DNA of 64,000 bases from IMG/VR virus record IMGVR_UViG_2778261503_000006, one strand, 5' to 3'. Below, piece after piece: positions 13,655 to 53,740 of this stretch; positions within the stretch are counted from its first letter, which is position 1; every line of letters begins with the position of its first letter. This stretch comes from a virus (lineage: Duplodnaviria; Heunggongvirae; Uroviricota; Caudoviricetes). The notes beneath the pieces are model-generated. The model was not told the origin of the DNA. It did not search any database and was given only the letters and a program-made list of their open reading frames with translations. The translations under genes and the position numbers were made by a program.

Positions 13655-13707
13655 CCTGTGTGTCTACAAAACATCCCAATGATCGGAAAATGCTCGGCCG
13701 ATTATTT

Positions 13708-27210: not shown

Positions 27211-27215
27211 ATTTA

Positions 27216-27302: not shown

Positions 27303-27306
27303 AATT

Positions 27307-27923: not shown

Positions 27924-28214
27924 GTGCAACATTAAGGGTATTTGGCTAATTAAGCGAATGCCGGAAGCAGAACCGGATCACCAAATGCGTACAGGCGTCA
28001 TCGCCGCCCAGTCAGCCAAATGCTCTTACCATTGCGGTGAATGCGGCTAAGCGCACGCGGAACAGTTAAAACAGTAAAGGTGGTCTTTTTACTGGCGTAA
28101 CGAGAATCCATAAGTGATCCGGCGTTAATTGTTAACTGGTTAACGTCACCGGGAGGCGCCCGGCACCGCAACCTAACAGCAATGGCGTTTTGTCTTAAAA
28201 GGTGGCTGCAAGTG

Positions 28215-28343
28215 ATGGATTTTTGGGCGTTTGCCGATAAAAACCCGGAGTGGACATTATTGTTTCTGCTGGTGGTTGCATACGGGGTAGAGCAAGCGGC
28301 AAAAGCCTTACGCGGTTCTGGCAAAAAGCGTAAGCGTAATTAA
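28215..28343 (+). CDS. candidate 42-aa small membrane protein (below the track's size cut-off)
   Basis: ATG 28215 preceded by AAGGTGG; hydrophobic core TLLFLLVVAYGV and K/R-rich tail; ends 10 nt before a tRNA. Confidence 0.25.
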   Translation: MDFWAFADKNPEWTLLFLLVVAYGVEQAAKALRGSGKKRKRN

Positions 28344-28352
28344 CAGTAATCT

Positions 28353-28428
28353 GGCCCTTTAGCTCAGTGGTTAGAGCGGGCGACTCATAATCGCACGGTC
28401 ACCGGTTCAAGTCCGGTAGGGGCCACCA
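28353..28428 (+). tRNA. tRNA with anticodon CAU (elongator Met or Ile2/lysidine type)
   Basis: acceptor ggccctt/aggggcc with G1-C72, D-arm gctc/gagc, anticodon loop ctCATaa, T-loop ttcaagt, 3' CCA. Confidence 0.8.
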
Positions 28429-32483: not shown

Positions 32484-33521
32484 TTACCAGAGCTTCGCGG
32501 CGTACTGCGTTTGGGGGAATGTGTATCCGTAACGTTCTTCGATTGCTTTGCCGTATTTTTTACGAGCTTCATTCAGTTTTATGCCGGTCAGGTCGTCTCC
32601 AGAGGCCATCATTACGTCTAACAATTCCAGATCCATTTTATCCAGCCTTGCCATTGCTTCACGTGATGTACGTATCTTACGCTCAATGATATGGCGAATA
32701 GCCGGATCGGCATCCTCCAGCATCTTAGCGGATTTCTGCTTAAGGCTTTCATTGCGAATATCGATGTTCCTTAAGATGTACGACTTCGCAACGTAGCTTG
32801 GCTGGTGTTTTTCCAGGTCACGAACACGATATAAGTTAAAATCGCCGAGAAGGCTGCAAGGTACCGATTCGACGCCAGAATAAATTGTAATGCTCCGGCG
32901 CTCACCAACATTATTGACAACGGGGATCGTTGTCTTCGGTAGTCTTGCGAAAACCAATGCGCCATGTGCGCCAACTCTAAAGCGAGAAAGGGCATTGCTG
33001 CCTTCGATGTTTGTTGTCAGCACAACATCTGTATATGCCTCTTTACGCGCCCGGTAGATCTCGCCTTCAGGCTCAGCTTCAAAGAAGCGCTGTTCTTCTT
33101 CAAGAGCACCTACGATTTGAGAAAAAACCCTATTTTTCAGGCTTTTCTTTATGATTTTGTCGTATTTTTTGAGCAATTGTTCACGTGTAAATGTACGTGT
33201 TGTTGTAGCGCTTTGCACAACAACATGCGTGCTTTGATTGGTGTCCTCAATGATGAATGGGATCGGAGAATATACAGACTCAACAATGTTCGACGCTTTG
33301 CCGTCGGCATCGCGGCACATGTCAACGAAGGCTTTCCATTCAGCAAGACATTTTTCAGCTTCTTCTAATATGTTTTGGTCATGCGTTAATGCAACATGGC
33401 GGAATTCCTCGCCAGCATAACTGGTATCATGGAAAACAGAGTTTGCGACCACCAGCTCTTTCCACCGTTCAGCGGTTTGCAGGAACCGTTTGTACTCTTT
33501 CTCGATCGACTTCTTACTCAT
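32484..33521 (-). CDS. hypothetical protein divergent from the recombinase locus (candidate immunity repressor by position only)
   Basis: 345 aa; operator-like motif 14-37 bp upstream of its start; no motif recognised. Confidence 0.5.
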   Translation of the reverse strand: MSKKSIEKEYKRFLQTAERWKELVVANSVFHDTSYAGEEFRHVALTHDQNILEEAEKCLAEWKAFVDMCRDADGKASNIVESVYSPIPFIIEDTNQSTHVVVQSATTTRTFTREQLLKKYDKIIKKSLKNRVFSQIVGALEEEQRFFEAEPEGEIYRARKEAYTDVVLTTNIEGSNALSRFRVGAHGALVFARLPKTTIPVVNNVGERRSITIYSGVESVPCSLLGDFNLYRVRDLEKHQPSYVAKSYILRNIDIRNESLKQKSAKMLEDADPAIRHIIERKIRTSREAMARLDKMDLELLDVMMASGDDLTGIKLNEARKKYGKAIEERYGYTFPQTQYAAKLW

Positions 33522-40331: not shown

Positions 40332-40578
40332 AGCGTTTTCACCTCAATAATACTGTTCATTTATACAGTATACATTAAAGAGACACATTTGGTGCAAACG
40401 CGTTACGTACATCAACCACCGCAGATGATTTTGTGCGCTTTGCTACTATTCATCACCAACGAATCAGCGTAACCTCGTTGCCCGGATTAGAGAAATGCAA
40501 AACGATAATAAAGGCTAAATCGAGGTAGAAAACACATTGTTTAAGGCCACTAATTGTGACCTCAAAGGGGAGAGATGC

Positions 40579-41130
40579 TTATTGGCTATGGCTAAAAATC
40601 AAATGAGACACTTCATGTGGTTGTAGCTCGTCAAGATCCGGGGCCACAAAACCTTTTCCGAAAGACTTCACAAGTGATTCACCAGCCGCATCATTGTCAC
40701 CTATTACGCGAAAGTCATACGGCAGCATCGCAAGTTGACGGCGTAATCCTGCGGAGAAAGTTGAACCTAACAGCGCCCACGAATTGCCGCCCGCGTTGTG
40801 TACAGCTGCGCTCTTAAAAATAGACTCAGTTATCCATATTGGGCCATCTTTTAAAGGAAGATAGGTTCCCCAAAGTAACTGTCTGCCGTGTGATCGCGTG
40901 AAATACCGGGCCATCTTCGGATTGCTATGCTGCTTAGGTGCACCTGGTCTATATGTCTGATACCCAGCCAACATCCCATCAAACCTGTAGAGAGGGAATG
41001 TAACTACTCCTTCGCTTTCATCGATCCACTGTCTATATGGGTGTATATCATGGCGGTAGTTGCGAGTTAGCAAATGAGCTTCCAGCTTTCCAAATTTTGT
41101 CATATTCCGTTCTTCCTGCATACTGGGCAT
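40579..41130 (-). CDS. hypothetical protein
   Basis: 183-aa ORF. Confidence 0.45.
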   Translation of the reverse strand: MPSMQEERNMTKFGKLEAHLLTRNYRHDIHPYRQWIDESEGVVTFPLYRFDGMLAGYQTYRPGAPKQHSNPKMARYFTRSHGRQLLWGTYLPLKDGPIWITESIFKSAAVHNAGGNSWALLGSTFSAGLRRQLAMLPYDFRVIGDNDAAGESLVKSFGKGFVAPDLDELQPHEVSHLIFSHSQ

Positions 41131-41405
41131 GTGTTCTCTGTGAAATATGGGAAACTATTATCCAGCTCATCTACCCACTGTTTATGGTCGAAGCAGAAAA
41201 ATATCTCCCACGGCATTCCATATTCTTCCATCCATAGGCGGATCTGCATTTCTATTGGAATCGGCGGTATTGCAGACACCATATCAACAGGATAACAGTT
41301 CAGACGACGTTCCAGTTCTTCTACTCTCTTCTGGAGATGAAATATCCGATCCAGATGCACACGCCGCTCCCGTGCCATTTTAAAATAAAGCTCGCCGGTC
41401 ATCAT
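41100..41405 (-). CDS. small coiled-coil protein with C-terminal Cys motif (paralogue of 41405..41689)
   Basis: C-terminal FFCFDHKQWVDELDNSFPYFTENTCPVCRK parallels AFWCYDHRRWCDELDSSFPYFAEGNSCPECRR. Confidence 0.4.
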   Translation of the reverse strand: MMTGELYFKMARERRVHLDRIFHLQKRVEELERRLNCYPVDMVSAIPPIPIEMQIRLWMEEYGMPWEIFFCFDHKQWVDELDNSFPYFTENTCPVCRKNGI

Positions 41406-41689
41406 TAACGCCTACATTCAGGGCAAGAGTTCCCTTCTGCAAAATAGGGGAAACTGCTATCAAGCTCATCACACCATCTGCGATGGTCGTAGCACCAAAA
41501 CGCCTCCCACGGTGCACGGAAATACTTCATCCACCAGGACACTCGATCAGGTATATCTGCTGGTGGCAGTTCTTCTGGCAATAATTTGCCTGATAATTCC
41601 CTTTCCGCCCGCGACAGCATTTTTTTGAGGCTCGCGTTCTCTTTTTCAAGCTCATCTACGCGCACCTGTAATTCAGCTTTCGTTGGCAT
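41405..41689 (-). CDS. small coiled-coil protein with C-terminal Cys motif (paralogue of 41100..41405)
   Basis: start set at internal ATG 41689 (MPTKAELQ...); track's longer ORF overlaps the upstream gene. Confidence 0.4.
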   Translation of the reverse strand: MPTKAELQVRVDELEKENASLKKMLSRAERELSGKLLPEELPPADIPDRVSWWMKYFRAPWEAFWCYDHRRWCDELDSSFPYFAEGNSCPECRR

Positions 41690-43193
41690 GGTCCACCTCA
41701 TGCTTTTCAGCCACCAGCGGCAATAAAGCCCTGGCCATCTTATGAACCAATAGTGCATCAATAATGCCAAGCGTATGCCCCGGCTTAATGTTTAATGCCG
41801 CCTCAAGGCGACACCTTTCCAGGCCACTTTTCTCGGCTTGTTTATGATGATCTGGTGTAATAACGTCGCCCAAAACACGGCTAATTCTTTCTCGTAATTG
41901 CTGGGTGCCAGCACACTTGATCGCTGTATCGTGGAGACGGTTAACCAGTTCGCGATAAACATGCGGCTTAATGCGGATACGTTCACCGGTGACGCCCTTT
42001 CCTGGCGCTGGCACCGAACTATCCGGAATATCCGGATAGTTGCCTGCCAGTCTACGCAACACAGCCTTAACGGCCTCAATACGGTCATCATCGCAACTTT
42101 CCGCCGTATCTATGCGGTCGAGCATGATGATGGCGTTATCAATATCAGGATTGCCGGTCCACTCATTACCGCGATTGGATTCGGCAGACTGGTTACCAGA
42201 TGCGGGTTGATTGTCGGCCTTACCCAGCCTGTCGTCGCTGCATGAATGCCCTTCCAGCCAGGCCAATGCTTGTCGCATGAAATACGCAATATGCTTGCCG
42301 TGGTAATCGTCTTCATCGATGTGAAAAGCGATACTGCGGATATATTCAATTGCGTTTTCAATGGCCTCCGGCGTTACCGGTGCTGACATATTTTGATTTT
42401 GGAGTGCCAAGACGCGGCTGGCATCCTCTACGCCTTTAACTGCATCTGCGCAGTAGTTATAGCGATTGCATTCCACTAACTTCTGCTTGAGATTTTCAAT
42501 TGCTTGCGCGACATCAGCCTGTATTGGCGGAACGGCTGTTTGCTCTCGAACGTCATTAGTCGCTATCGGTTCTGCTGCCAACTGACTGGCATATTTGTTA
42601 ATGGTAACGATAAGCTCTTGCTCGGCCTCATCCAGACAATCACCGATACCTCGCCTGTCACCGTCAAAATCATCGAAATCGGCACGAACTCTGGCAAACT
42701 TCAGGATTGCTGACAACACCTCACTAGGAATTACCGGATAGTTGGTTGACGTTTCCGCGATTTCCCGAAAATTATTGGTTGACGAATTCTTGCTTTCCCG
42801 AAAGTTTCCGGACTGAAGCATGGCGGTGCGGCAGGCGTTCCATATTTCGGCAGCAATATCGCGCTCGCTATCGGTTAATTTGTACGTGGAAACATAGCCA
42901 GAGAGCATTTCTACGTTTTCCGGAGTTGCTTCTTCCGGCACTACCGGCGCTGGCGGGGCGATGCGTCCAAGCAACTTATTTACCTCTTTCGCCATCGCGT
43001 CATATTTATCTAAATGGCGATTAGCTTCTAAGCAGACTCGGCGCATCTGATCTGAGTTAACTCGTTTAACTGGATCTGCTTCCAGCGATGCCAGCGCAAT
43101 CCGTGCCAGTTCCATTTGTTCACCACGGGTAAGCCCGTTTTCAAGCGGATTTTTAATGAACAATTCAATACGTTCTTTGGTAATAGTGGTCAT
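41673..43193 (-). CDS. large hypothetical early protein
   Basis: 506 aa; N-terminal MTTITKERIELFIKNPLENGLTRGEQMELARIALASLEA shared with 43469..43879; C-terminal segment resembles that of 50310..50921. Confidence 0.5.
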   Translation of the reverse strand: MTTITKERIELFIKNPLENGLTRGEQMELARIALASLEADPVKRVNSDQMRRVCLEANRHLDKYDAMAKEVNKLLGRIAPPAPVVPEEATPENVEMLSGYVSTYKLTDSERDIAAEIWNACRTAMLQSGNFRESKNSSTNNFREIAETSTNYPVIPSEVLSAILKFARVRADFDDFDGDRRGIGDCLDEAEQELIVTINKYASQLAAEPIATNDVREQTAVPPIQADVAQAIENLKQKLVECNRYNYCADAVKGVEDASRVLALQNQNMSAPVTPEAIENAIEYIRSIAFHIDEDDYHGKHIAYFMRQALAWLEGHSCSDDRLGKADNQPASGNQSAESNRGNEWTGNPDIDNAIIMLDRIDTAESCDDDRIEAVKAVLRRLAGNYPDIPDSSVPAPGKGVTGERIRIKPHVYRELVNRLHDTAIKCAGTQQLRERISRVLGDVITPDHHKQAEKSGLERCRLEAALNIKPGHTLGIIDALLVHKMARALLPLVAEKHEVDHANES

Positions 43194-43203
43194 GTGTTAC
43201 TCC

Positions 43204-43467
43204 TTAACCCGCAGTGCTTTCAACTGATGAGGGGAACAAAATCTTTTCATCAAACCCTGCATTCATATCATGAACAGCAACACACCAATCCATCGACGAA
43301 CGATTATCAAGAGTCTCCATGATTTCATCCATGCGGCGCAGGTCATACAGGTAAATGCTTTTATCGCCAATGGTGTAAAAACCAATTTTTTTCGGTGATG
43401 GACAGCGATCAAGAACGTCCTGTAATTCGTTCAACCATGCCCGTTCTTTTTTTGTTAAAGTTGCCAT
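43204..43467 (-). CDS. hypothetical small protein
   Basis: 87 aa from ATG 43467 (MATLTKKERAWLNELQ...) with AGGAGA RBS. Confidence 0.4.
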   Translation of the reverse strand: MATLTKKERAWLNELQDVLDRCPSPKKIGFYTIGDKSIYLYDLRRMDEIMETLDNRSSMDWCVAVHDMNAGFDEKILFPSSVESTAG

Positions 43468-43468
43468 A

Positions 43469-43879
43469 TCACTCTCCTTTCCCATGAAGCATAGCGGCGC
43501 GGCAGGCGTTCCAGCCTGTAGCGTATGCAGCCGCTTTGCTGCTGCCTTCAACTGGCGCATCCTGCCAATACATTTCATCCGGCACTACCGGCGCTGGCAA
43601 GGCAGCGTGATAGTAGAGTGGCATAGTTTTGTACAGTGGTTCGCCAGGACTTCCGTCAACCTGATTCCATTCTTCAACCCAGGCATCAACAACCGCTTTG
43701 CTGGTTGATACATGTTCTTCTGAATCTACATTTTGTCCTGATATACAGAACATAACTGCCTCTGCTTCCAGCGATGCCAGAGCAATTCGTGCCAGTTCCA
43801 TTTGTTCGCCACGAGTAAGTCCGTTATCAAGCGGATTTTTAATGAATAATTTGATACGTTCTTTGGTTATAGCGTTCAT
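43469..43879 (-). CDS. hypothetical protein sharing the N-terminal module of 41673..43193
   Basis: 136 aa from ATG 43879 (MNAITKERIKLFIKNPLDNGLTRGEQMELARIALASLEA). Confidence 0.45.
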   Translation of the reverse strand: MNAITKERIKLFIKNPLDNGLTRGEQMELARIALASLEAEAVMFCISGQNVDSEEHVSTSKAVVDAWVEEWNQVDGSPGEPLYKTMPLYYHAALPAPVVPDEMYWQDAPVEGSSKAAAYATGWNACRAAMLHGKGE

Positions 43880-43880
43880 C

Positions 43881-44636
43881 TCACTCTCCTTTGATGCGAA
43901 TGCCAGTAGCGCGGATTGCATCGATGACTTCAGAAACTTTGTATGCCATTACCGTTTGGTAATCATCGTGAAAATCTGTTCGATGAAGCATGCTGCTACG
44001 TTCCGGGAGCGATATTTCCCGAGCATCCAGTTCCTTAACGCGCTCCTCCAGTTCGTAGACCCTGCATTGTTCTCTATCATCAATCAGATATAACCCAAGA
44101 CATTCGCTTTCTACCCAACCGCCAAAATCATGATCGTAACGCTCACATGAAAACTCACCGTCACCGTCCTTTGTTGGAATGGTGTAACTATCTAATGGGC
44201 CACCATATGTCGGCACATTTCCCAATGTTGGATGCTCAATCCACATGAAAAATGCACGTCCGGTTATTGGGCAAATATCTGGCCGCCATTGGTTACGAAC
44301 AGCCTTGGTTTCGGATAATTCTTCAGCGTGTTGTTTTACTTCCTCAAGCTCAACTCTCAGCTTCCCAACCGTAAGAGCAATATCCTCGTTCTTCTGGTCG
44401 CGGCGTTTGATGTATTGCTGGTTTCTTTCCAGTTCATCCAGTAATGCCAAAGCAACCTTTGGATTAAAGGCAGCAATAAATTCAGCGTTGTTTTTCAGAA
44501 CGTGTTGCGCAATGGCCTGACCACTTAGTCGGACCTTATAACCACGTGCGCCACGGTGTGGTTTATATGAGTCCCAGTCTCCCCACGTTGCTTTCTCTGC
44601 CGCCTCACGCAGTGCCTGGTAATTAATTTTGCTCAC
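43881..44636 (-). CDS. Ead/Ea22-like family protein
   Basis: 251 aa; N-terminal YQALREAAEKATWGDW...AAFNPKVALALLDELE pattern. Confidence 0.5.
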   Translation of the reverse strand: MSKINYQALREAAEKATWGDWDSYKPHRGARGYKVRLSGQAIAQHVLKNNAEFIAAFNPKVALALLDELERNQQYIKRRDQKNEDIALTVGKLRVELEEVKQHAEELSETKAVRNQWRPDICPITGRAFFMWIEHPTLGNVPTYGGPLDSYTIPTKDGDGEFSCERYDHDFGGWVESECLGLYLIDDREQCRVYELEERVKELDAREISLPERSSMLHRTDFHDDYQTVMAYKVSEVIDAIRATGIRIKGE

Positions 44637-45072
44637 TGACTGCCTCCTTCTTAATCAGTTTACACAGGTGCTCCACAGCCACAGAGAGTGCATCCACCGC
44701 TCGTTTATCCAGACGCGGGGCCAGAGCAAGCAGTTCATTTATTGCAATCTGAATACCATGCTCCGCCGCCAGCGCCGCGCGATTGCTCTCCAGCTCTGCA
44801 ATGCGCTGTTTTGCGGTATCAAGTTCAATCGATAATTTTTCCAACTGCTCTTTATGCTTCTTGTATTCCTGATATGCGTGCCAGGACTGACCTTTGCGCA
44901 CACTATCAGTAATATCAGTAATCTGTTCTGGTGTTAGAGTGGTCAGTGGCTGTGCTGGGAAAATCAGCACTTTCCCGGAATCCCAATCAAAACCAGCGTG
45001 AATTGACTGAACCTCAACTGAGGGTGTTGAACCAATGCTGCCAGGCGAATGAACAACGATCGTTACATCCAT
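44623..45072 (-). CDS. hypothetical coiled-coil protein (start uncertain)
   Basis: ORF in track 44623..45168; internal ATG 45072 (MDVTIVVHSP...) preferred. Confidence 0.4.
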   Translation of the reverse strand: MDVTIVVHSPGSIGSTPSVEVQSIHAGFDWDSGKVLIFPAQPLTTLTPEQITDITDSVRKGQSWHAYQEYKKHKEQLEKLSIELDTAKQRIAELESNRAALAAEHGIQIAINELLALAPRLDKRAVDALSVAVEHLCKLIKKEAVSEQN

Positions 45073-45164
45073 ATCGCGACGATGGCTGTGGTTGTTGGAC
45101 AAAATACGATTCAACAAAATACGATTCACCAACTCAGAAAATTTGGAGAATTTCATGCGGAGCC

Positions 45165-45575
45165 TCAATATGCAAAATAGACCGTTGCCACGCCGTTATA
45201 GTGATCAAACGATACGGCGTTTACTTCATAACTGGCCGGGAGCTTCGAGCCAAGAACGTATCCGGGCCACGTTTTCCATGGAATTTCTCTATTCTCACTA
45301 CCCCCATATACCGTACATCCAAGTGAACCTACAGCTTCATTAGAACGCGTGCCGCACGTTATGAATCCCAGATTTTGCTTACTGCTCTTAATGGTGATTG
45401 AGTGAACGCTGGCTGATGCATTAGCAGCACGCTGTGCCTGTTGGTTTGCGATATTCGCAGAGTTCGCAGCAGCTACAGCAGCCGTAGTCGCGGCGGTAGA
45501 GGCTACAATAGCTGCTGAAGCATGCACTTGTTGGATATTCACCAACAATGCCGCGATAAAAATCATCTTCTTCAC
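45165..45575 (-). CDS. secreted Ala-rich protein with signal peptide
   Basis: 136 aa; MKKMIFIAALLVNIQQVHA signal-like N-terminus. Confidence 0.45.
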   Translation of the reverse strand: MKKMIFIAALLVNIQQVHASAAIVASTAATTAAVAAANSANIANQQAQRAANASASVHSITIKSSKQNLGFITCGTRSNEAVGSLGCTVYGGSENREIPWKTWPGYVLGSKLPASYEVNAVSFDHYNGVATVYFAY

Positions 45576-46294
45576 TTGTCAGCTCCTTTGCGAATCTGTT
45601 CCGCCCATTCTTCAAGGGATTTCTCCGCATATTCACCAGACAGGCCATCAATCGGATGCGCTTCATTAGCCAACTCTTCTTTCGCTGACAAAATCATGCG
45701 TGTAACGTCGAAAACTTCACGCAAAGACTTATTGATAAATCCGTGATTGAACGCAGCAGCAAGACGGCTGGCGGTATAGTTAACTCCCTCGTTGCGTGCT
45801 TCCGCACGAATTTCAGCCAGAAAAGCATCGGTGGCTGGCATATTTCCTGTTGCCTTCATGGCCTCCAAAATAACCAGAACGCCATCTCGCCCAACCTCCT
45901 CAGCGATAACCTCGGTGTTGTCGCCAACAACATCGCAGAATGCCTGAACTGCCTTACGAGCCAGTTCATTCTCCGCCGCCAGCGCCGCGAGATTAGTCTC
46001 AAGCTCTGCAATTCGACACATAGCATCAATATTTGTGTCCTCCAGGCGCTTAATTTCACCAAGAAGCTCCAGTGCAACCTTTGGGTTGAACGCGGCAACA
46101 TAACGAGCGTTGTTCTCTGCATTTTTCTGTCCATCAAAGCCGGTCCATTTGATAACGTCTTCACATCGTTCATCACCGGGCGTGTGCACCGCATAAGTAC
46201 CAGTATCCGTCGAAATAAATGCGACCCATTCGTCTGGTGTTGCCTTTTCTGCCGCCTCACGCAGTACCTGATAGTCAATTGTCATTCTCGCCAT
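45572..46294 (-). CDS. Ead/Ea22-like family protein
   Basis: 240 aa; YQVLREAAEKATPDEW...AAFNPKVALELLGEIKRLE; C-terminal region paralogous to 49503..50006. Confidence 0.5.
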   Translation of the reverse strand: MARMTIDYQVLREAAEKATPDEWVAFISTDTGTYAVHTPGDERCEDVIKWTGFDGQKNAENNARYVAAFNPKVALELLGEIKRLEDTNIDAMCRIAELETNLAALAAENELARKAVQAFCDVVGDNTEVIAEEVGRDGVLVILEAMKATGNMPATDAFLAEIRAEARNEGVNYTASRLAAAFNHGFINKSLREVFDVTRMILSAKEELANEAHPIDGLSGEYAEKSLEEWAEQIRKGADK

Positions 46295-46926
46295 CCTTCA
46301 CAGTTGTAATCACGACAGCCTTCAAAATCATATGGGCTGTACTGCCAGGTTATTTTTCCGCAATGCGGACAATTCCAACGCACCTTCCCGCTTCGCGACT
46401 TCTTTCTTCTGTTCTGCTCTTTCAACCAGTCAGGCATGACCAAACCTGCGCCCTGAACCATTGTTCTGCGGTTAAAGTTATTGATATTGAACGTCCGGCG
46501 CTTTGCTGCATCAGCAATGGAAAATGGCAACCAAACTATTCCTGGTTCGTTTTTGTTGGCGAAGCTAAAGATGGTCGCTTTACTGAAGTCATCTGTTGGC
46601 AATCCACCGTGTTGAAGCCAGTAAACATCGTTGCCGTTCCAGCTACCTTTTTTGTAGGCCACATACTCAGTGCAATCTGACTCAATCAGGCTTTCTGTAG
46701 GGATGTACTGGCAATCAACGTGCCACACAGCCATTGCATCCACACTATCGGCACAAACAGGCTGATCGATATCTCGCCCACAATTCCAGGCTTTTTGGGC
46801 TTCTTCCAGCGTGTAAATATGAGCGCGATCGATATCAGAACTGTAACCATTGCCGTTATGGCAATGGAATGAGGCGTTATTACCCACAGTTTCACGCAAG
46901 CACATCATGTAAAAGCGGTTATTCAC
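46282..46926 (-). CDS. hypothetical protein with C-terminal zinc-ribbon-like Cys cluster
   Basis: 214 aa; WNCPHCGK...CRDYNCEG. Confidence 0.45.
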   Translation of the reverse strand: MNNRFYMMCLRETVGNNASFHCHNGNGYSSDIDRAHIYTLEEAQKAWNCGRDIDQPVCADSVDAMAVWHVDCQYIPTESLIESDCTEYVAYKKGSWNGNDVYWLQHGGLPTDDFSKATIFSFANKNEPGIVWLPFSIADAAKRRTFNINNFNRRTMVQGAGLVMPDWLKEQNRRKKSRSGKVRWNCPHCGKITWQYSPYDFEGCRDYNCEGWRE

Positions 46927-47212
46927 TGGTTGCCTCCGCTTCCCACGTTTTCAGACTTTCACCACAGAATGGGCAAAATGAAACTCGAATAGGCGATTTA
47001 GAAAATTCACCAGACCGCAGCATGATCAGGTCTTGTGAATGAATTAATTCATGGTTATAGATTTTGTATTTCAGCAGACCTTTCCGCGTCGTGTATTCAG
47101 CATCCTGCTCCAGAGATTGTGCCAACGCCGCGCACGGTTCTATTTTTTTGTCATTAATCAAACAAGTGGAGATTCTGCACTTTGCAGCTCCGTCACCATT
47201 ACCTTGACTCAT
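46919..47212 (-). CDS. hypothetical small Cys-rich protein
   Basis: 97 aa; CPFCGES motif. Confidence 0.4.
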   Translation of the reverse strand: MSQGNGDGAAKCRISTCLINDKKIEPCAALAQSLEQDAEYTTRKGLLKYKIYNHELIHSQDLIMLRSGEFSKSPIRVSFCPFCGESLKTWEAEATSE

Positions 47213-47225
47213 TGCATTGCTCCCA

Positions 47226-48221
47226 TCAGTTATTGAACGTGATCACTCCGCGCTCAATGGCGAAGTCGAAAAGCTGGTTAGCGGCTACGTAAAGGCGTAT
47301 GCCATGTGCTTTTTCCCATGCCCGGACATCGTTTTCTGCGCTTCTGGCGCAGTCATCGCAAAGAGGAACAGTCCAGCGGTCGTGTTCGTTTAACGAGCGG
47401 GCGCGGTACATGAATGGGTGATTAACCTTGCCGCCGCAGCCTACACACGGGCGAGACACCACAAACCGGAGATAAGCCGGGCTTTTTCCGAGTAAGGTTT
47501 TTGGACGGCGCATATATAGGAGGCCAGAATCTTCATCGACGGACAGATTGACGATCTGCTCTGCGGAAATATCCACCAGCTCGCGGGTACTATGCTCCCA
47601 AGTAATATCCGACTCTTTCAGAGTGCCGGTAGGGATTTCAGTTTTTGGCTGACAAAATGCAATGCGACCAGCTTCATCAGGCAGTTCGTCTTTAAGATTC
47701 CGGCGAATGGCCCAAAAGGTGAGTTCAACCATGCTCAGATCGCGATCTGGCGGAAGTTTTAACTCGCTGGCAGCCCAGTTCATAATCCAGTTGGCGCGAT
47801 TCAGTGACAGTTGGTCTTCCAGCTTGCCGTATCCCTTCATCATGTATTCCGCATCATGCTTCCAGCACAGGCGAACGGCAGAACCGTTATAGAAATGGGT
47901 GGTTAGCTGGTGGCTGCAATCGCGCTTATCATGCACCTGGCAATCGTGAATGTTGGTGCTAACCCAGTGAACGAGAGAATCCTCACCACCTAACGCGTTA
48001 AATACGCGCTCACTTTGAAAAAAGGGTGCCAGTGACTGGTTGGCAACCAGTGAATAATTCAGGTCAACGACACCATCAGGGGTGTTTTCAGCCTGTTCAC
48101 GCGGCAATGGGGATATAAGAAAACGGCGTCCTGCGCCGATGTAATTGCTGGTGGGCTTATCTACAGGAAAGACAGCCACACCAGTTTCATTTACGACATA
48201 TGGGGTGATTATTGCACTCAT
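47226..48221 (-). CDS. hypothetical protein with C-terminal Cys/His zinc-finger-like motifs (DUF968-like impression)
   Basis: 331 aa; CVGCGGKVNHPFMYRARS...DRWTVPLCDDCA; operator-like motif pair upstream. Confidence 0.5.
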   Translation of the reverse strand: MSAIITPYVVNETGVAVFPVDKPTSNYIGAGRRFLISPLPREQAENTPDGVVDLNYSLVANQSLAPFFQSERVFNALGGEDSLVHWVSTNIHDCQVHDKRDCSHQLTTHFYNGSAVRLCWKHDAEYMMKGYGKLEDQLSLNRANWIMNWAASELKLPPDRDLSMVELTFWAIRRNLKDELPDEAGRIAFCQPKTEIPTGTLKESDITWEHSTRELVDISAEQIVNLSVDEDSGLLYMRRPKTLLGKSPAYLRFVVSRPCVGCGGKVNHPFMYRARSLNEHDRWTVPLCDDCARSAENDVRAWEKAHGIRLYVAANQLFDFAIERGVITFNN

Positions 48222-48260
48222 AATGCATACCGACTCTGTTTTGTTCCGATCGGTAAAATA

Positions 48261-48293
48261 ATATGTTAGAAAACTAAAATCAATGTTCTAACG
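48261..48293 (+). promoter_or_regulatory. operator-like motif pair in inverted orientation (atatgttagaaaactaaaatc / aatgttctaacg)
   Basis: 40-70 bp upstream of minus-strand gene starting at 48221. Confidence 0.45.
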
Positions 48294-48449
48294 TGATTTT
48301 GAGTGCGTAAATGATTTGATCAGACTTTAAGCTGCCCTCCCTTCACCTGCATTAGCGTCAGATTTCCGCTAAAAACCGCGCCCGTGTCTAGTTTCTATAG
48401 CCAGAACCATCAATACGGCTATATAAATTCACTTCATGCAGAGCCTGGG

Positions 48450-48761
48450 TCATGCGGCAACCTTCTCACGCAGCCAGATACAAACCGGACCATCTTCAGT
48501 GTCATGAATAGAGCCAACAAACCAGCCTTCACCCTCTGGTCGCTCCGGTTCCCAGGCGGCAATATCGGGACCAGCTGCGTCCAGATCAAAATCATCTTCA
48601 TCCATACTGCGAATAGTCCACTGAAGATTATTTTCCTTCATCCAGGCGTCAAATTCCTCAGTGGAAATATATTCACGACCTGCGCAAAACTTCTCATACT
48701 CCGGATGTGTCCAGCAGCCATATTCATCACGTTCTACCGGCATTTCTTTAATTGTGTTCAC
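48450..48761 (-). CDS. hypothetical acidic protein
   Basis: 103-aa ORF. Confidence 0.4.
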   Translation of the reverse strand: MNTIKEMPVERDEYGCWTHPEYEKFCAGREYISTEEFDAWMKENNLQWTIRSMDEDDFDLDAAGPDIAAWEPERPEGEGWFVGSIHDTEDGPVCIWLREKVAA

Positions 48762-48982
48762 TCTTCATCCTCCAAATCAGCAACCGCGTCCATCACATCA
48801 GAACCGCGAATAACTTCAAAAGCGCGGCAGGCCATTTGAAATACCCGTTGCTCTTGCGGGTGCGGAGACTCCCAATATTTGAAGCCTGGGCGATGCGTGT
48901 ACCCCATCATGGAATAAAAATCGCCAGCAAGTTCAATCGCGGCATCAACAAGTTCGCGATTTGTCATCGTCTGTTCTGTCAT
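48758..48982 (-). CDS. hypothetical small protein
   Basis: 74-aa ORF, overlapping stop/start with neighbours. Confidence 0.4.
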   Translation of the reverse strand: MTEQTMTNRELVDAAIELAGDFYSMMGYTHRPGFKYWESPHPQEQRVFQMACRAFEVIRGSDVMDAVADLEDEE

Positions 48983-49254
48983 TTGGTTTTCTCCTGTCTG
49001 AACATCACTATCATCAGGTCGCCTTTTGTCGCTATTCTGGCTGTTGTGCCTGGTTCAATGCGGCTAAGTTCAAATGCGTCATAGAACGCTTCTAATGCCT
49101 TCTGGCGTAGTTCCTGTTTGCGCCGTTTTTTCCACTCTTTTAGGAAAATGGAACCCAGCCATCGCCAGGTACGGGACATGATGTAAAGCCAACCAAGAAG
49201 TGCCAGACCGGTATTTAGGGCCGTATCGAGCGTTATCGTGGTGTCGATATTCAC
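48979..49254 (-). CDS. hypothetical small membrane-anchored protein
   Basis: 91 aa; LALLGWLYIM hydrophobic segment. Confidence 0.4.
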   Translation of the reverse strand: MNIDTTITLDTALNTGLALLGWLYIMSRTWRWLGSIFLKEWKKRRKQELRQKALEAFYDAFELSRIEPGTTARIATKGDLMIVMFRQEKTK

Positions 49255-49499
49255 TGTGGTGGTTCCTGCTTTTCTGCCTTCAATACCATGCGAGAACCAT
49301 CATCCAGCTCCCAATTAATTTCACCGCCTTCTGCCATGACCAGATGCCAGACGAGTTGAGCGGCCTCGTTGGTTACATCACGACCGCGATCATTGCCAAC
49401 ACGACGTTTTGTTCCATCCCCTAAGTCACGCATTTTTGCCAACACGATGGTTTTTGATAGCGGTGAAAAACCAAGCTGTAGTCGTGCGGTATTACTCAC
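49251..49499 (-). CDS. hypothetical small protein
   Basis: 82-aa ORF. Confidence 0.4.
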   Translation of the reverse strand: MSNTARLQLGFSPLSKTIVLAKMRDLGDGTKRRVGNDRGRDVTNEAAQLVWHLVMAEGGEINWELDDGSRMVLKAEKQEPPQ

Positions 49500-49502
49500 T
49501 GT

Positions 49503-50006
49503 TTACCTTCCTTTTCTAAGCTGTTCGGCGATATCTTCGAGAACGCCATCAGAGAATGAGCGGTCAAAATCGCCTTCCCGCGCATTAGCCATAAACTCAG
49601 TAGAGGTAAGAATCATCCGGGCAATATCCGCGGCGTTCTTCGCAGTATCATCAATAAAACCAGCTTCCCAAGCAGCCAGCATCCTGTTCGCCACAAAGTA
49701 AGCGCCCTCCTTGCGTGCTTCAGTCTTCACTTCATCCAGGAAAGTGTCGGTCGCAGGAGTGGTTTTTTGTGGTGATAGGGCGAGACGAATTGTTTCGAGA
49801 GCTGGATCTATTTCCACTGTTGGCACCTTGATAAAGCCAAGCTGCACGCCATTCATAATGAACGTGCGGCGATCCTCACATATCGCATTCAGTCTCGCAT
49901 TCTCCGCCGCCAGCGCAGCACACGCTTTCTCAAGTCGGGAAATTTCCGTTACATACTCAGCGTTACGCTCTGCCAGTTGTGCTGGCGTTAAACCTTCAGA
50001 CTTCAT
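49503..50006 (-). CDS. Ea22-like C-terminal-module protein
   Basis: 167 aa; DTFLDEVKTEARKEGAYFVANRMLAAWEAGFID parallels the C-terminus of 45572..46294. Confidence 0.45.
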   Translation of the reverse strand: MKSEGLTPAQLAERNAEYVTEISRLEKACAALAAENARLNAICEDRRTFIMNGVQLGFIKVPTVEIDPALETIRLALSPQKTTPATDTFLDEVKTEARKEGAYFVANRMLAAWEAGFIDDTAKNAADIARMILTSTEFMANAREGDFDRSFSDGVLEDIAEQLRKGR

Positions 50007-50313
50007 GTACTCTCCTTTCGAAATAAACGTACTGATTAATCATGCCCAGGGGCATTTCGAGTTTTTCCGCGATCTCACGGCGGGGAACACCACACTGATG
50101 AAGCTGCCGCGCCAGTTCTATATCGCTCTGCCGGAATTTGGCTGACGGATGAAAGTCTCCTTTCAGAATCATGCTGATCCCCAACTCCCGCGCTTTAGTC
50201 CTGACGGCATCACCGGTACGACCGATCAGCTTCCCAATACTCTCGACCGTCATAGTTCCGGCGCACTGGCGGAGTATCATGATTTCTGCCCTTCCCCATC
50301 CCCGCCAGCTCAC
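49996..50313 (-). CDS. small DNA-binding protein (HTH-like)
   Basis: 105 aa; IGKLIGRTGDAVRTKAREL and RREIAEKLEM helix-turn-helix-like segments. Confidence 0.4.
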   Translation of the reverse strand: MSWRGWGRAEIMILRQCAGTMTVESIGKLIGRTGDAVRTKARELGISMILKGDFHPSAKFRQSDIELARQLHQCGVPRREIAEKLEMPLGMINQYVYFERRVHEV

Positions 50314-50921
50314 GCAGAACTCCTTCTAACCAAAAGAACGCCATCTTCAGAAACAACGTTGCAGGACTTCAGGTAATTCATTGCCTCTTTCGGTAATGGA
50401 TTCTTTGGATCGGCGTTTGCCAGGGATTTCGATAACCTCATGATAAATTTGATCATTACCTTCTGGCGGAGCTTGTGCTCATGAGATAAAGACAGGTAAT
50501 AGGAAATGGTATGGGCTAAACGCTCACGAAGCTGTTCTGTGCCGTGATATACAGCAGCGATATCACGCAGTGCATTGACCAGTTCCCGGTAAATATGCGG
50601 AGCAACCTGGCATTCAATGTTGGTTGGTGACTCATAAATTACAGTCAGCCCCAGCTTTTCAGCCAGCGCGTGCTCTGCGCGAGCACCAACCGATTCTTCC
50701 CATCGATTGAGCAAGTAGATCGCATCAGCAGAACGCACCATTGCCAGGCAAATATCCATGTATTCACTCTGACAAAGGCCACCAGGTAACATAGCTGGAT
50801 TCAGAACGATATGCCCTTCAGCCATCAACTCGCTCGCTTTCGCATTAAACGCCGCACGGTTGTAATCTGGATAACCAGTCATCGGCCCCGCGATGTAAAT
50901 TTTCAAAACACGTTTCACCAT
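50310..50921 (-). CDS. DUF4406-like (nucleoside 2-deoxyribosyltransferase-like) N-terminal domain protein
   Basis: start set at ATG 50921 (MVKRVLKIYIAGPMTG...); KIYIAGPMTG motif. Confidence 0.5.
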   Translation of the reverse strand: MVKRVLKIYIAGPMTGYPDYNRAAFNAKASELMAEGHIVLNPAMLPGGLCQSEYMDICLAMVRSADAIYLLNRWEESVGARAEHALAEKLGLTVIYESPTNIECQVAPHIYRELVNALRDIAAVYHGTEQLRERLAHTISYYLSLSHEHKLRQKVMIKFIMRLSKSLANADPKNPLPKEAMNYLKSCNVVSEDGVLLVRRSSA

Positions 50922-51073
50922 CAAAATTTCCCCAGAATCGTGACGCAAAACATAAGCACTGCGAAAAGCTCAATACCAAGCTCAAGTAGCGCCAACGCCC
51001 CGAAAAACAACACATAGAACAGGCCAATCTCATTCACAGATGGCTGGTGGATCGCACTTAAAGCTATAAGCAT
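50921..51073 (-). CDS. candidate 50-aa hydrophobic peptide (below the track's size cut-off)
   Basis: manual translation MMLIALSAIHQPSVNEIGLFYVLFFGALALLELGIELFAVLMFCVTILGKF; GGAGGA RBS; stop overlaps next ATG (TGATG). Confidence 0.25.
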   Translation of the reverse strand: MLIALSAIHQPSVNEIGLFYVLFFGALALLELGIELFAVLMFCVTILGKF

Positions 51074-51113
51074 CATGTCCTCCAAACAGTTATCAGGAAT
51101 GATATTAATGTTT

Positions 51114-51146
51114 TGTGTTAGAAAATCAATTTTGAATATCTAACCA
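51114..51146 (+). promoter_or_regulatory. operator-like motif pair (tgtgttagaaaatcaatttt plus inverted variant atatctaacc) in a divergent promoter region
   Basis: between minus-strand operon ending 51073 and plus-strand gene at 51194. Confidence 0.45.
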
Positions 51147-51193
51147 TTTTGATCAATCATAGAAAAATCGTTGAAAAGTAAGAGACTGCCATC

Positions 51194-51772
51194 ATGCAGA
51201 AACAGAGTTATTGGGAGAAACAGAGACAAAAAGCCATGCAAAAATTGGCTGACCCGGCCTGGCGAGAGGAACAAAGGGCAAAGCGCCTTCAACAAGCTCA
51301 ACGCCAGCAGCAGCGAGCGAGAGAAAAAGCCGCATCGCCTGAATATCGGCAAAAGAAAATTGAAAAAGCAAAGCAATATGAACAGCGGAGAAAAGATAAA
51401 GCTGTATCCGCTCCGTCCAAAAAAACACGCACGTCACGCGGCCTGAAAGGCAGATCACTCACAGCCGATGAACGCCGGATACAGACCGCTATCGGTGCTC
51501 TCCCCTGCATTGCCTGCCATATTCACGGGCAACATAGCCCAGTGGTATCCCTGCACCATATCTTCGGGAGAACGGCAGAGAACGCGCATAAATATGTCCT
51601 CCCTTTGTGTAAATGGCACCACCAGTACGCAGCGCCAGCCGAGGTCAGAGAACAATATCCCTGGCTGGTCCCTGTTCATGCTGACGGAAAAATAGGCGGA
51701 AAAGCAGATTTCATGCGGCACAATGCCGATGAAATGACGTTGTATCAGATGGCGATTGAGTTGATAAATTAG
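51194..51772 (+). CDS. ref: Ref-like HNH-family nuclease with basic disordered N-terminus
   Basis: 192 aa; K/R/Q-rich first ~80 aa then Cys/His cluster LPCIACHIHG...SLHHIFGR...LPLCKWHHQ. Confidence 0.55.
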   Translation: MQKQSYWEKQRQKAMQKLADPAWREEQRAKRLQQAQRQQQRAREKAASPEYRQKKIEKAKQYEQRRKDKAVSAPSKKTRTSRGLKGRSLTADERRIQTAIGALPCIACHIHGQHSPVVSLHHIFGRTAENAHKYVLPLCKWHHQYAAPAEVREQYPWLVPVHADGKIGGKADFMRHNADEMTLYQMAIELIN

Positions 51773-52271: not shown

Positions 52272-52376
52272 AATACTGACTGTTGCGCCCTGGCATTATC
52301 GTGGGGTATATTTCTACGGCACCTTAGAAAAACGGGTGCCGGGATTGAGACCCCGGATAATGCAAAAGGCGACACA

Positions 52377-52398
52377 GACGCCGAAAGCGTCTTTTTTT
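52377..52398 (+). terminator. rho-independent terminator
   Basis: gacgccgaaagcgtc followed by ttttttt. Confidence 0.7.
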
Positions 52399-52447
52399 GT
52401 GTCATGCCATCGCACAGCCATACGTAGCGTATAGCTCCAAGATCAAT

Positions 52448-52523
52448 GGTAGTGCTGGCTGGGCTGCCGAAAGGCAGGCCGGTTCCCTTTTGCGCCGGTA
52501 GTCTCAACCCAGCCAGTGCTACC
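52448..52523 (+). ncRNA. candidate structured antisense-type RNA upstream of the icd-like gene (c4-like by analogy); unverified
   Basis: 16-bp outer stem ggtagtgctggctggg/cccagccagtgctacc enclosing two hairpins. Confidence 0.3.
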
Positions 52524-52583
52524 GCCATTGAGATTGAGACCTCACGCGGTAGCTCCTTAAATTAGCAAAAGGAGGCTGCCAAT

Positions 52584-52799
52584 ATGGCTACTATCCCTAC
52601 CCCAACTCATTCTGAATTTATCTGGCGTTTCTATTCCTGCCAAAAGCACCTGTATATCTGCGTCATGGCTGCTACCGAATCAGAGGCGCGCTCATACCTT
52701 CCCGAAGAACCCTGCATTTTTGCTGCTCGCTTCACTCTTGATGCGATGGAGATCCTCAATTACTGGAATCTGCCGATGAACTGCGTGGAGGTGCGCTGA
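52584..52799 (+). CDS. icd: Icd-like small protein (second copy)
   Basis: 71 aa; SEFIWRFYSCQKH...AATESEARSYLPEEPCIFAARF; TGATG overlap with the ant gene. Confidence 0.55.
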   Translation: MATIPTPTHSEFIWRFYSCQKHLYICVMAATESEARSYLPEEPCIFAARFTLDAMEILNYWNLPMNCVEVR

Positions 52800-53740
52800 T
52801 GAATCTGTCCATCTCTCAAAAAGCGACAATGACCAGCATTGAGATCGCGGAGCTGGTAGGAAGTCGCCCAGATAGTGTGAAGAGAACTATCGAAACACTG
52901 GCTAAAAAGAGTGTGATCCAATTTCCACAATCTGTGGAAATTGAAAATAAACAATCAGTTGGCCCTCGTCGATTTTCCAAGGCTTACATCTTTGAAGGCG
53001 AACAAGGAAAACGAGACAGCATCATTGTCGTCGCGCAGCTCTCTCCGGAATTCACCGCCCGGCTGGTGGACCGCTGGCGCGAACTGGAGAATGCCCGGGT
53101 ACAGTTAAAATCAAAAGCCGAAATCCTGGCTGAAATGGCGCAAATGCATCTTGAGCATGAACGCCGGATCAACGCCGTAAATGCCCAGGTAGCCGAGGTA
53201 TCAGCACAAGTATCGATGGTCGCTGAAACCGTCGAGCAAATAAAGAAAGGCAATATTCCGGAAGGCTACATTGGCTACCGCCAGTTGGCGGCGAAATGTG
53301 GCCTGACTGAAGCCAAATGTCGCAACCTGGTTAACGCTTACCGGATTCCCACCGATACGCATGAGTTTTTAACTCCAGATGGTTTGCTTGCGCGACGCTC
53401 CATTGTGGCCCTGGCCCCCTTCCGGAAAGCCTTTAAGCAGGTGATGTCAGAGGCAGAACCACGCAATAAACGCTGGTATCATCCAAAGATGGGGATGTTT
53501 CAGGCAATCCACCATCCTGTGCCTGAAAGTCCAAAGGCAAACCTGTCGTTGCATACCGCCAGAGAGAGGATTAAAACAGGCTATGCAATCGTATGCCGTC
53601 GAGCATCCTGGCCTGAAGGTGTATGGGTGTGGCCCGAAGGTGGATCACGAAAGCACTGGCGCACTATCCGGGATGGGAAAATCCATGCGATTGATTTAGC
53701 TCCAGAGGATGTTGTTGCTACGGACTGGATTGTTAGTTAA
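52799..53740 (+). CDS. ant: phage antirepressor (Rha/Ant family) fused to a C-terminal DUF2829-like domain
   Basis: 313 aa; N-terminal MTSIEIAELVGSRPDSVKRTIE; C-terminal YAIVCRRASWPEGVWVWPE...ATDWIVS equals the separate 66-aa ORF of the first copy. Confidence 0.7.
   Translation: MNLSISQKATMTSIEIAELVGSRPDSVKRTIETLAKKSVIQFPQSVEIENKQSVGPRRFSKAYIFEGEQGKRDSIIVVAQLSPEFTARLVDRWRELENARVQLKSKAEILAEMAQMHLEHERRINAVNAQVAEVSAQVSMVAETVEQIKKGNIPEGYIGYRQLAAKCGLTEAKCRNLVNAYRIPTDTHEFLTPDGLLARRSIVALAPFRKAFKQVMSEAEPRNKRWYHPKMGMFQAIHHPVPESPKANLSLHTARERIKTGYAIVCRRASWPEGVWVWPEGGSRKHWRTIRDGKIHAIDLAPEDVVATDWIVS

Follow-up and report, generated by a model that had tools for sequence, protein, structure and literature searches.

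Mosaicism of Ea22 genes is established, as are the variable regions of P1-like phage-plasmids and the control of early operons by C1. In the modular (linker-sequence) theory of Susskind and Botstein and in later work on lambdoid phages, short conserved boundary sequences reportedly serve as crossover points. Ea22 genes have been described as mosaic (PMC10834534, PMC7093339), and a C-terminal K/R-G-E tripeptide is a feature of the family (PMC7093339). In P1, ref is controlled by C1 (PMC4713147), while the genes from pap to humD are non-essential, as is lambda ea22 (PMC10695390).

Identity of the element

The window analyzed here, a stretch of 64,000 nucleotides, is by its gene order and sequence a D6-like (D6-type, P1-related) phage-plasmid of E. 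coli. It features the arrangement cre-...-phd/doc-humD-block-ref-icd/ant of the D6-like phages (P1 subgroup 2) together with D6 immunity, and the block under study (40579-51073), which is syntenic with phage D6, is situated between ref and the LexA-controlled humD. A C1-family repressor, as expected for a P1/P7-type C1-controlled early operon, is encoded at 32484-33521 on the minus strand. The protein is 100% identical to C1 of phage D6 (D6 orf1, annotated as 'prophage repressor similar to P1 C1') and shares 20% identity over 241 aa with P7 C1 (E 2e-8). Cre-like and Cin-like recombinases are encoded elsewhere on the element. The E. coli plasmid p95_MLI121 covers 100% of the block at 99.9% identity; upstream, the plasmid is not collinear with the window and an offset of ~764 nt is seen near repL. 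PLSDB holds roughly 800 related plasmids.

We are fairly confident that the block is a dispensable leftward early accessory operon of a D6-type phage-plasmid, the modules of which have been reshuffled by recombination. It may consist of two nested operons.

Gene content of the block

The block comprises 21 minus-strand ORFs, all co-directional, and 12 of the 20 gene junctions overlap by 1-17 nt, in line with the sequence-only reading of the window, which had described about 20 small overlapping genes. In the direction of transcription, the features are:

50921-51073, minus strand: g21, 50-aa hydrophobic protein, phrog_8890, counterpart of D6 orf88
50310-50921, minus strand: g20, DUF4406 (nucleoside 2-deoxyribosyltransferase-like) domain and a C-terminal module shared with g04
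49996-50280, minus strand: g19, small DNA-binding protein by family (phrog_323, D5-like regulator)
49503-50006, minus strand: g18, chimera of N18 module, coiled-coil core and C-module b
48450-49499, minus strand: four conserved small genes overlapping by 4 nt, g17 (DUF7446), g16 (DUF4752), g15 and g14
48320-48453, minus strand: remnant of ppp (metallophosphoesterase gene), 559 nt deleted relative to relatives, frame ending after 21 codons
47226-48221, minus strand: g13, DUF968/HNH-type protein, PdcB-like
46282-47212, minus strand: g12 and g11, homologous to upf87.4 and upf87.6 of P7
45572-46294, minus strand: g10, chimera of Ead/Ea22 N-domain, coiled-coil core and C-module a
44757-45988, minus strand: movable cassette made up of C-module a of g10, the whole of g09 and the N-domain of g08, flanked by core copies
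within 44757-45988, minus strand: g09, 136 aa, signal-peptide-like N-terminus
44623-45156, minus strand: g08, chimera of N08 domain (phrog_6026), coiled-coil core and short tail c
43881-44636, minus strand: g07, Ead/Ea22-like protein with KGE end
43204-43879, minus strand: g06 (N-module plus short body) and g05 (phrog_1714)
41673-43193, minus strand: g04, 506-aa composite of the P7 Upf89.5/D6 orf104 type
41100-41689, minus strand: g03 and g02, adjacent paralogues (phrog_3797) with leucine-zipper-like N-terminus and C-x2-H ... C-x2-C tail
40579-41103, minus strand: g01, toprim/primase-fragment protein

The composite g04 is built from the N-module, a phrog_14306 part (residues 116-266) and a phrog_21459 part (residues 357-506, containing the motif shared with g20). 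A weak terminator-like hairpin (40540-40566) lies 3' of g01. The only large intergenic gap, 228 nt at 48222-48449, coincides in part with the ppp remnant, and no clean microhomology was detected at the ends of the deletion. The block had been read as two halves, each headed by a motif pair; motifs are present at both places, and the gap separating the halves is in part a deleted ppp gene.

By homology, the genes are shown to be drawn from a pool common to lambdoid prophages (Ea22-like, EaA-like, DUF968, DUF4752, DUF4406). The proposed comparison with lambdoid prophage regions bore this likeness out at the nucleotide level, with segments of 42727-46937 being 94-97% identical to Stx prophages. 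PADLOC defence-protein models gave no match among 20 block proteins, a PDB sequence search gave none for g07 and g10, and Rfam returned no RNA family within the block. By analogy with lambda Ea22 and the P1 counterparts, most of the products would be non-essential and would modulate host physiology or the choice between lysis and lysogeny. The designation 'early/accessory' likewise appears apt, judging from the positional counterparts in P1 and from the dispensability of lambda ea22 (PMC10695390).

Internal repeats and paralogous modules

When the block was compared with itself, ten direct self-hits scored above the best match in 30 dinucleotide shuffles (30.1 bits), and internal repeats thus exceed chance. 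One of the repeats resides at the start of two genes:

43067-43205 (start of g04) and 43753-43891 (start of g06), minus strand: repeat D1, copies 1 and 2

The copies are 89% identical over 127 nt (43067-43193/43753-43879), and the extended 139 nt are 86% identical; the direct repeats proposed from the letters are real, their stated length of ~118 bp being slightly short. The coiled-coil repeat occurs on the minus strand in three copies (44757-44805, 45967-46015 and 49898-49946), all of which contain the exact 15-mer GCGCTGGCGGCGGAG. Further direct repeats are found at 41115-41213/41411-41512, 44587-44628/46239-46280 and 45778-45838/49697-49757.

On the protein level, every shared module that the sequence-only reading had named proved significant. 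The N-termini of g04 and g06 share 43% identity over 144 aa (E 2e-23). The Ea22-like N-termini of g07 and g10 (37% over 122 aa, E 4e-13) both fall into Pfam PF13935 (Ead_Ea22; 104.5 and 73.6 bits, cut-off 27), a domain that Pfam does not find in g08 and g18. The C-module is common to g10 and g18 (32% over 162 aa, E 1e-20), the Cys-motif tails belong to the paralogues g02 and g03 (43% over 89 aa, E 4e-23, both PHROG 3797), and the coiled-coil segment AALAAE(N/H) is present in g08, g10 and g18. Beyond what had been noted before, residues 402-455 of g04 resemble the C-terminal part of g20 (42%, E 3e-9). The family's terminal tripeptide is present in g07, which ends in IKGE, and absent from g10 (RKGADK) and g18 (RKGR).

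Such paralogous modules could have arisen by duplication in place followed by divergence, without any exchange with other elements. The adjacent position of g02 and g03, their about 74% identical DNA and their single PHROG fit this explanation, as does the distance of only 686 nt between g04 and g06. All other modules, however, have a relative elsewhere that is 90-100% identical in nucleotide sequence, stands in a different context and is far closer than the paralogue within the block, and the cassette is found at different loci in different plasmids. As a general explanation, in-place duplication is improbable.

Recombination at the coiled-coil core

The comparison of 14 related loci points at exchange between elements. 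Ends of homology blocks coincide with internal repeats or gene boundaries in 26 of 46 clusters versus 8.9 expected (p = 2e-8), a statistic derived from BLAST block ends that are partly shaped by the repeats and from relatives that are not independent of each other. Homology blocks begin or end exactly at the core in eight loci, many breakpoints fall inside g04, and locus L009 carries a g06-type N-module on a g04-type body. Three N-modules and three C-modules are linked by the core (19-49 nt). Of the nine possible N/C combinations, six exist in PLSDB, and all six chimeras looked for were recovered from other plasmids, with junction counts of 3, 15, 43, 13, 10 and 8 (3-43 plasmids each); the g08 junction (N08-core-tail c) is confined to only 3 plasmids. 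C-modules are interchangeable among the relatives, one of them occurring on at least seven different N-modules. Among the contigs listed from IMG/VR, a sample capped at 120 and chosen by the exact core, this core connects at least 23 N-types to at least 32 C-types. Breakpoint clustering and the six chimeras in other plasmids thus support the view of the region as recombination-prone.

A core of this kind might also be conserved only for helix oligomerization, by convergence or purifying selection, without being a recombination joint. Ea22 of lambda forms a tetramer and has a central coiled coil (PMC10834534), and AlphaFold predicts a confident long helix for residues 8-55 of g18 (pLDDT >90), in a model that was built from an 18-sequence alignment and has a mean pLDDT of 62 and values of ~50 in the C-module. 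Yet conservation extends to synonymous positions: the ALAAE(N/H) joints share an identical 18-mer in 20 of 27 cases, the others being off by a single synonymous change, while the flanks are unrelated. Together with the exact coincidence of homology-block ends with the core, this nucleotide identity makes a purely structural explanation highly improbable. That the repeats are sites of programmed site-specific shuffling of the shufflon/invertase type, switching Ea22-like variants within a population, is scarcely credible in spite of the three exact copies of the 15-mer and the Cre-like and Cin-like enzymes, since all core copies have the same orientation, dyad symmetry is absent from the core, the shared length differs between pairs (19 to 49 nt), no recombinase gene adjoins the repeats, the block lacks the combination of inverted sites and a dedicated recombinase, and three plasmids isolated in Mali, Germany and Vietnam agree at 100% identity across the junctions, indicating a stable arrangement.

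Homologous recombination between elements is the best explanation, and at the level of sequence these comparisons show that the internal repeats are recombination joints. Crossovers occur repeatedly at short, in-frame joints conserved at the nucleotide level and thereby generate the paralogous modules. The main joint is the 19-49 nt core encoding (I)AELExNxAALAAEN; the 127-nt N-terminal module, the Ea22 N-termini, a second joint encoding TPATDAFLAE and gene boundaries serve in the same way. The ~1.1-kb cassette resides in the left half here, whereas most relatives (L005, L006, L010, L013, L015, L016) carry it in the right half. In the present lineage, crossovers at the core would have removed it (C-module a, g09 and N08) from the g18-g17 interval, and its present location in the left half, within a gene of the Ea22-like type, would account for the chimeric g18, g10 and g08. 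The move may have been an excision followed by re-insertion, an exchange by double crossover with a donor prophage, or the outcome of two separate events.

The core also contains a 7/8 match to Chi (GCTGGCGG). We regard it as unlikely that selection on the DNA itself keeps the 19-nt core, GCGCTGGCGGCGGAG(A/C)ATG, as a hotspot dedicated to in-frame crossovers, a true 'linker' that combines dozens of N-terminal and C-terminal effector domains. Such a linker would serve enterobacterial temperate phages as well as phage-plasmids, with the intervening gene carried along as a cassette, and the Ref/RecA system nearby might stimulate the exchange.

Candidate operators

Two operator-like sites are located in the spacers upstream of ref-proximal g21 and of the DUF968 gene:

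51116-51144: operator-like site in the g21-ref spacer, strong half TGTTAGAAAATCA at 51116-51128 (plus strand) and a weak inverted half
48264-48292: operator-like site in the DUF968-ppp spacer, strong half TGTTAGAAAACTA at 48264-48276 (plus strand) and a weak inverted half

Exact copies of the palindromic form GTTAGA-N16-TCTAAC lie at 48265-48292 and 51117-51144, and matches with up to two mismatches number seven versus 1.64 expected. The 'operator-like motif pairs' of the sequence-only reading hence exist as motifs, but each consists of one strong half-site and a weak inverted half. Enrichment is also displayed by the asymmetric motif TGTTAGAAAnnTA, which has 13 matches with at most one mismatch in the 64-kb stretch versus 1.06 expected, and a strong copy of which lies inside each of the two pairs. 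Twelve of the 13 sites are intergenic, at places equivalent to those in P1/P7. They are found upstream of c1, lpa, a pmgS-like gene, repL, both C4-icd-ant modules including both C4 RNAs, and ref, and match the annotated P7 sites Op(lpa), Op(sht), Op(hea) and Op(c1) in position. Like the operators of P1/P7-type C1-controlled operons, this asymmetric site of ~17 nt recurs at c1, lpa, immI, repL, ref and the accessory operons. The motif itself is absent from P7, which uses ATTGCTCTAAT. P1 immunity was considered and rejected: the P1 consensus ATTGCTCTAATAAATTT has no match with up to three mismatches in the whole 64-kb stretch, and the specificity of the repressor must therefore differ from that of P1.

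Both sites are kept at the same places in 13 of 13 D6-like loci examined; they align, and at the DUF968 site the TGTTAGAAAnnTA matches are exact. The flanking DNA is conserved equally, so that conservation alone provides no footprint. By eye, a possible leftward promoter, TTGATT-16-TAATAT (51129 to 51102, minus strand), overlaps the 51116-51144 site, and another, TTGATT-17-TATTTT (minus strand), overlaps the 48264-48292 site. Both are weak, with hexamers matching at 8 of 12 positions, and an automatic scan reported no minus-strand promoter at either site, the candidates being below threshold.

Motif enrichment, the P1/P7-equivalent positions, the D6-identical C1 and conservation across 13 loci support, by sequence analogy, the proposal that the region is under repressor control, and we infer that C1 controls the block, with its binding being predicted. 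In the plasmid prophage state, D6-type C1 would bind the ~17-nt asymmetric site with the consensus TrTGTTAGAAAwnTAA and thereby cover weak sigma-70 promoters at ~51110 and ~48270, such that expression of the block genes would have to await infection or induction. The analysis also puts forward a candidate operator for D6-type immunity.

Comparison with known systems

The mosaicism described here is a sound and ordinary, though unusually clear, phage case. It supplies concrete coordinates for the rebuilding of phage accessory proteins, in which a single short coding sequence connects domains in many different combinations. Joint and candidate operator leave current understanding unchanged and should be useful for annotating the roughly 800 related plasmids and for designing recombination experiments.

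The closest counterparts are D6 orf88-orf108 and the 'hea' operon of P1/P7 (pap/upf86.8 ... hot-humD), which occupy the same position, between ref or early functions and humD-phd-doc, and share DUF4406, DUF4752, DUF968, Ea22-like, upf87.4/87.6 and pmgU/Upf89.5-type genes with the block. In P7, an annotated C1 operator heads the operon. The block is alignable to D6 over 44% and to P7 over 23%. It differs from these counterparts by the deletion of ppp, from P1/P7 by a toprim gene in place of hot, and by an operator sequence distinct from the P1/P7 consensus ATTGCTCTAATAAATTT.

Ea22 proteins of lambda and Stx phages exhibit a three-part build of N-terminal Ead_Ea22 domain, coiled coil and swappable C-terminal domain, which the Ea22-like proteins of the block probably share, and the exo-xis and nin accessory regions of these phages are early and dispensable, as the block would be by analogy. 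The block, however, resides on a plasmid prophage with a C1-type repressor as its probable regulator instead of cI/N control. Its place between ref and humD also differs from the exo-xis interval of the lambdoid pL operon; vB_EcoS-689R5, a lambdoid phage, carries homologues of the block between O and Q. Unlike in lambda/Stx Ea22, the non-Ea22 N-modules N08 and N18 use the same joint, and the K/RGE end is kept only in g07. Finally, as in the modular theory and in relaxed homologous recombination of temperate phages, crossovers at boundaries would create new combinations, but the main joint of the block lies inside coding sequence with the frame kept, so that protein domains and a three-part cassette are swapped and not whole genes.

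Identity of the element and layout of the block

Over its full length, the region 40500-51200 shares 99.9% identity with Escherichia coli plasmid p95_MLI121 (NZ_CP117014), and about 800 further plasmids from Escherichia, Salmonella and Shigella, mostly non-mobilizable and of about 90-97 kb, also match it. The best phage match is D6 (44% covered at 94.7%), followed by P7, SJ46 and P1, and many Stx-converting lambdoid phages share short stretches at 94-97% identity. According to the annotation of p95_MLI121 and D6, the block is flanked by humD-phd-doc on one side and by divergent ref on the other. The repressor gene is found elsewhere in the window:

32484-33521, minus strand, C1-type repressor of 345 aa, 100% identical to D6 orf1

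D6 orf1 is annotated as 'prophage repressor, similar to P1 C1', and the protein is a distant homologue of P7 C1 (20% identity, E 2e-8). Because of the position of the block and the identity of the repressor with D6 orf1, the element is a D6-type phage-plasmid with D6 immunity. Outside the block, at about 9800-14000, window and NZ_CP117014 are not collinear, with an offset of about 764 nt near the portal and repL genes, and the window therefore stems from a plasmid that is related to p95_MLI121 but distinct from it. At 40353-40368, 22 nt upstream of humD, there is a perfect LexA box (CTGTTCATTTATACAG) that matches the LexA site annotated in P7.

The long co-directional block with overlapping stops and starts described in the sequence-only reading comprises 21 minus-strand genes (g01 to g21 by rising coordinate, 40579-51073), with 12 of the 20 junctions overlapping and a sole large gap of 228 nt. 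IS903 splits the P7 homologue of the toprim gene g01 (L012, the P7 locus, 5001-6331). Pfam families were assigned as follows:

g07, Ead_Ea22
g10, Ead_Ea22
g13, DUF968
g16, DUF4752
g17, DUF7446
g20, DUF4406

All-against-all BLASTP of the block proteins recovered every pair of recurring modules listed before and added one, in which residues 402-455 of g04 resemble the DUF4406 protein g20 in its C-terminal part. Several non-overlapping PHROGs families match along each of g04, g07, g10, g18 and g20, as would be expected of composite proteins. PADLOC defence models gave no match among 20 block proteins, g07 and g10 have no sequence match among solved structures, and the AlphaFold model of g18 is confident only in a long N-terminal helix. 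The gene g08 is absent from the CDS entries in the gene tables of p95_MLI121; a single-base indel relative to that plasmid is present at 45161, just upstream of the g08 start codon.

The internal direct repeats also held up at the DNA level: in a self-comparison, ten of them outscore the best match of 30 dinucleotide-preserving shuffles, the strongest being 43067-43193 versus 43753-43879 (89% over 127 nt). A conserved ribosome-binding/start context, AAGGAGAGTGAnATG, is repeated where g04, g05 and g06 begin (43173-43206, 43447-43480 and 43859-43892); repeats of this type, at gene boundaries, have been proposed as linker sequences.

A candidate operator motif

The P1/P7 operator consensus was not found in a search of the whole window. 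The two operator-like pairs noted earlier are both exact matches to the palindrome GTTAGA-N16-TCTAAC (48265-48292 and 51117-51144), and inspection of all GTTAGA sites brought out a longer asymmetric motif with the consensus TrTGTTAGAAAwnTAA. At one mismatch or fewer, TGTTAGAAAnnTA occurs 13 times in the window versus 1.06 expected, and 12 of the 13 sites are intergenic. The intergenic sites lie at these places:

16 nt upstream of c1
between an orf5-like gene and lpa
upstream of a PmgS-like gene
upstream of repL
upstream of each of two C4 antisense RNA-icd-ant modules (C4 by Rfam)
at both ends of ref
upstream of the DUF968 gene

These positions coincide with C1 operators annotated in the P7 record, i.e. 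Op(lpa), Op(sht), Op(hea) and Op(c1a-d); the motif is not present in P7. Every D6-like locus examined carries it at both block positions, and it is also found upstream of D6 c1. Since the sites match annotated P7 operator places and are kept in D6-like loci, and since P1 ref is under C1 control (PMC4713147), we read the motif, by positional analogy, as a candidate D6-type C1 operator, a sequence that may be new to the literature. Enrichment and P7-like positions thus lend support to the repressor control proposed from the sequence. Two weak minus-strand promoter candidates read by eye, TTGATT-16-TAATAT (51129-51102) and TTGATT-17-TATTTT (near 48270), each overlap a block operator site and score below the promoter-scan threshold; C1 binding, early timing and promoters of the block are what we infer.

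Copies of the motif accompany further features. Two immI-like modules (13815-14999 and 52319-53740) each lie downstream of a motif copy; both comprise a C4 antisense RNA, a gene resembling icd and an antirepressor of the Ant/Rha type, and the second additionally contains an isrK-like RNA. At 27136-28428, tRNA genes for Asn, Tyr, Thr, Ser and Met form a cluster of five; the gene-poor stretch around them is flanked by motif copies at 25903 and 26059.

Within the block, one candidate operator is situated in a conserved 98-nt spacer between the DUF968 gene and the metallophosphoesterase gene ppp. All ppp-bearing relatives align to 48390 and then resume at 48391; 559 nt are gone from within ppp in the window, p95_MLI121 and pB2C_96, a deletion not seen in 11 other relatives. 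A remnant remains at 48320-48453, its frame stopping after 21 codons, and no clean microhomology was found at the junction.

Module exchange at short in-frame joints

When compared by BLASTN with 14 related loci, the block appears as a patchwork of homology. The segment 44757-45838 (to 45988 in locus L015) is 92-94% identical to a right-half segment of L005, L006, L010, L013, L015 and L016. In those loci the g17 and g19 homologues enclose this cassette, which carries the complete g09 between the g10 C-module and the g08 N-domain. In the left half of L005 the cassette flanks are joined directly at a 49-nt repeat, and g18 of the window combines the N-terminus of the relatives' g18' with the C-module of their gene X, the crossover falling within 49888-49919. 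Relocation of this three-part cassette in the lineage may be new to the literature. The N-terminus of the cassette-borne g09 (45165-45575) resembles a signal peptide (MKKMIFIAALLVNIQQVHA), and the protein, which also has an Ala-rich stretch, may be an exported moron-type product.

In translation, three N-modules (Ea22-type, N08 and N18) are joined to three C-modules (a, b and tail c) at AALAAE(N/H), and nucleotide alignment reveals that unrelated flanks surround an identical core, GCGCTGGCGGCGGAG(A/C)ATG. Probes of 281 nt detected the window's three junctions in 3, 15 and 43 plasmids, respectively; for the three alternative junctions the counts were 13, 10 and 8. The chimeras and alternative module arrangements are directly visible; the recombination pathway and its direction are inferred. 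Among 27 ALAAE(N/H) joints from loci not selected by nucleotide sequence, 20 have an identical 18-mer and the remaining seven differ by one synonymous change each, which favours common descent of the joint over convergence at the protein level. The core contains GCTGGCGG, a 7/8 match to Chi on the coding strand (44761-44775, 45971-45985 and 49902-49916, minus strand).

The joint is widespread among viruses. At least 120 IMG/VR viral contigs contain the exact 19-mer core, and 111 complete ORFs running through it combine at least 23 N-terminal with at least 32 C-terminal clusters in at least 43 combinations. Among 3552 relatives retrieved with the g18 protein, the nearly invariant C-module b follows N-termini of at least seven kinds, and in all of them the switch is at ALAAEN. 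That an in-frame joint of 19-49 nt serves so many module combinations may likewise be new to the literature.

Other joints behave similarly. Homology ends in four relatives at a second one, TPATDAFLAE (45778-45838 / 49697-49757); the 39-aa N-module starts ORFs that range from 55 to 576 aa in relatives, and locus L009 carries a g06-type copy of it in fusion with a g04-type body. Of 46 clusters of homology-block ends, 26 coincide with internal repeats or gene boundaries versus 8.9 expected, the relatives not being independent and the BLAST block ends being partly influenced by the repeats themselves. Patchwork homology, chimeras, alternative junctions and clustered breakpoints together bear out the recombination-prone region suspected earlier; the observation as a whole proved real and the comparative evidence supports its interpretation.

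Chi (GCTGGTGG) occurs 45 times in the 64-kb window versus 1.5 expected and is absent from 41719-47572 (5.85 kb, the most mosaic, lambdoid-like part of the block) and from 48155-51042 (2.9 kb). Its absence there and abundance across the window suggest that both stretches are recent imports from Chi-poor phages.

Comparison with known systems

Regions of this kind are known, and the block is an ordinary example that had already been sequenced. P1-group phage-plasmids exchange many genes with phages (PMC10879196), and neither the P1 counterparts (pap to humD) nor lambda ea22 are essential for lytic growth (PMC10695390). Ea22 of lambda and Stx phages is built from an N-terminal segment followed by a coiled coil and C-terminal domains that vary; its genes have been called mosaic and a pro-lysogenic effect has been reported (PMC7093339, PMC10834534).
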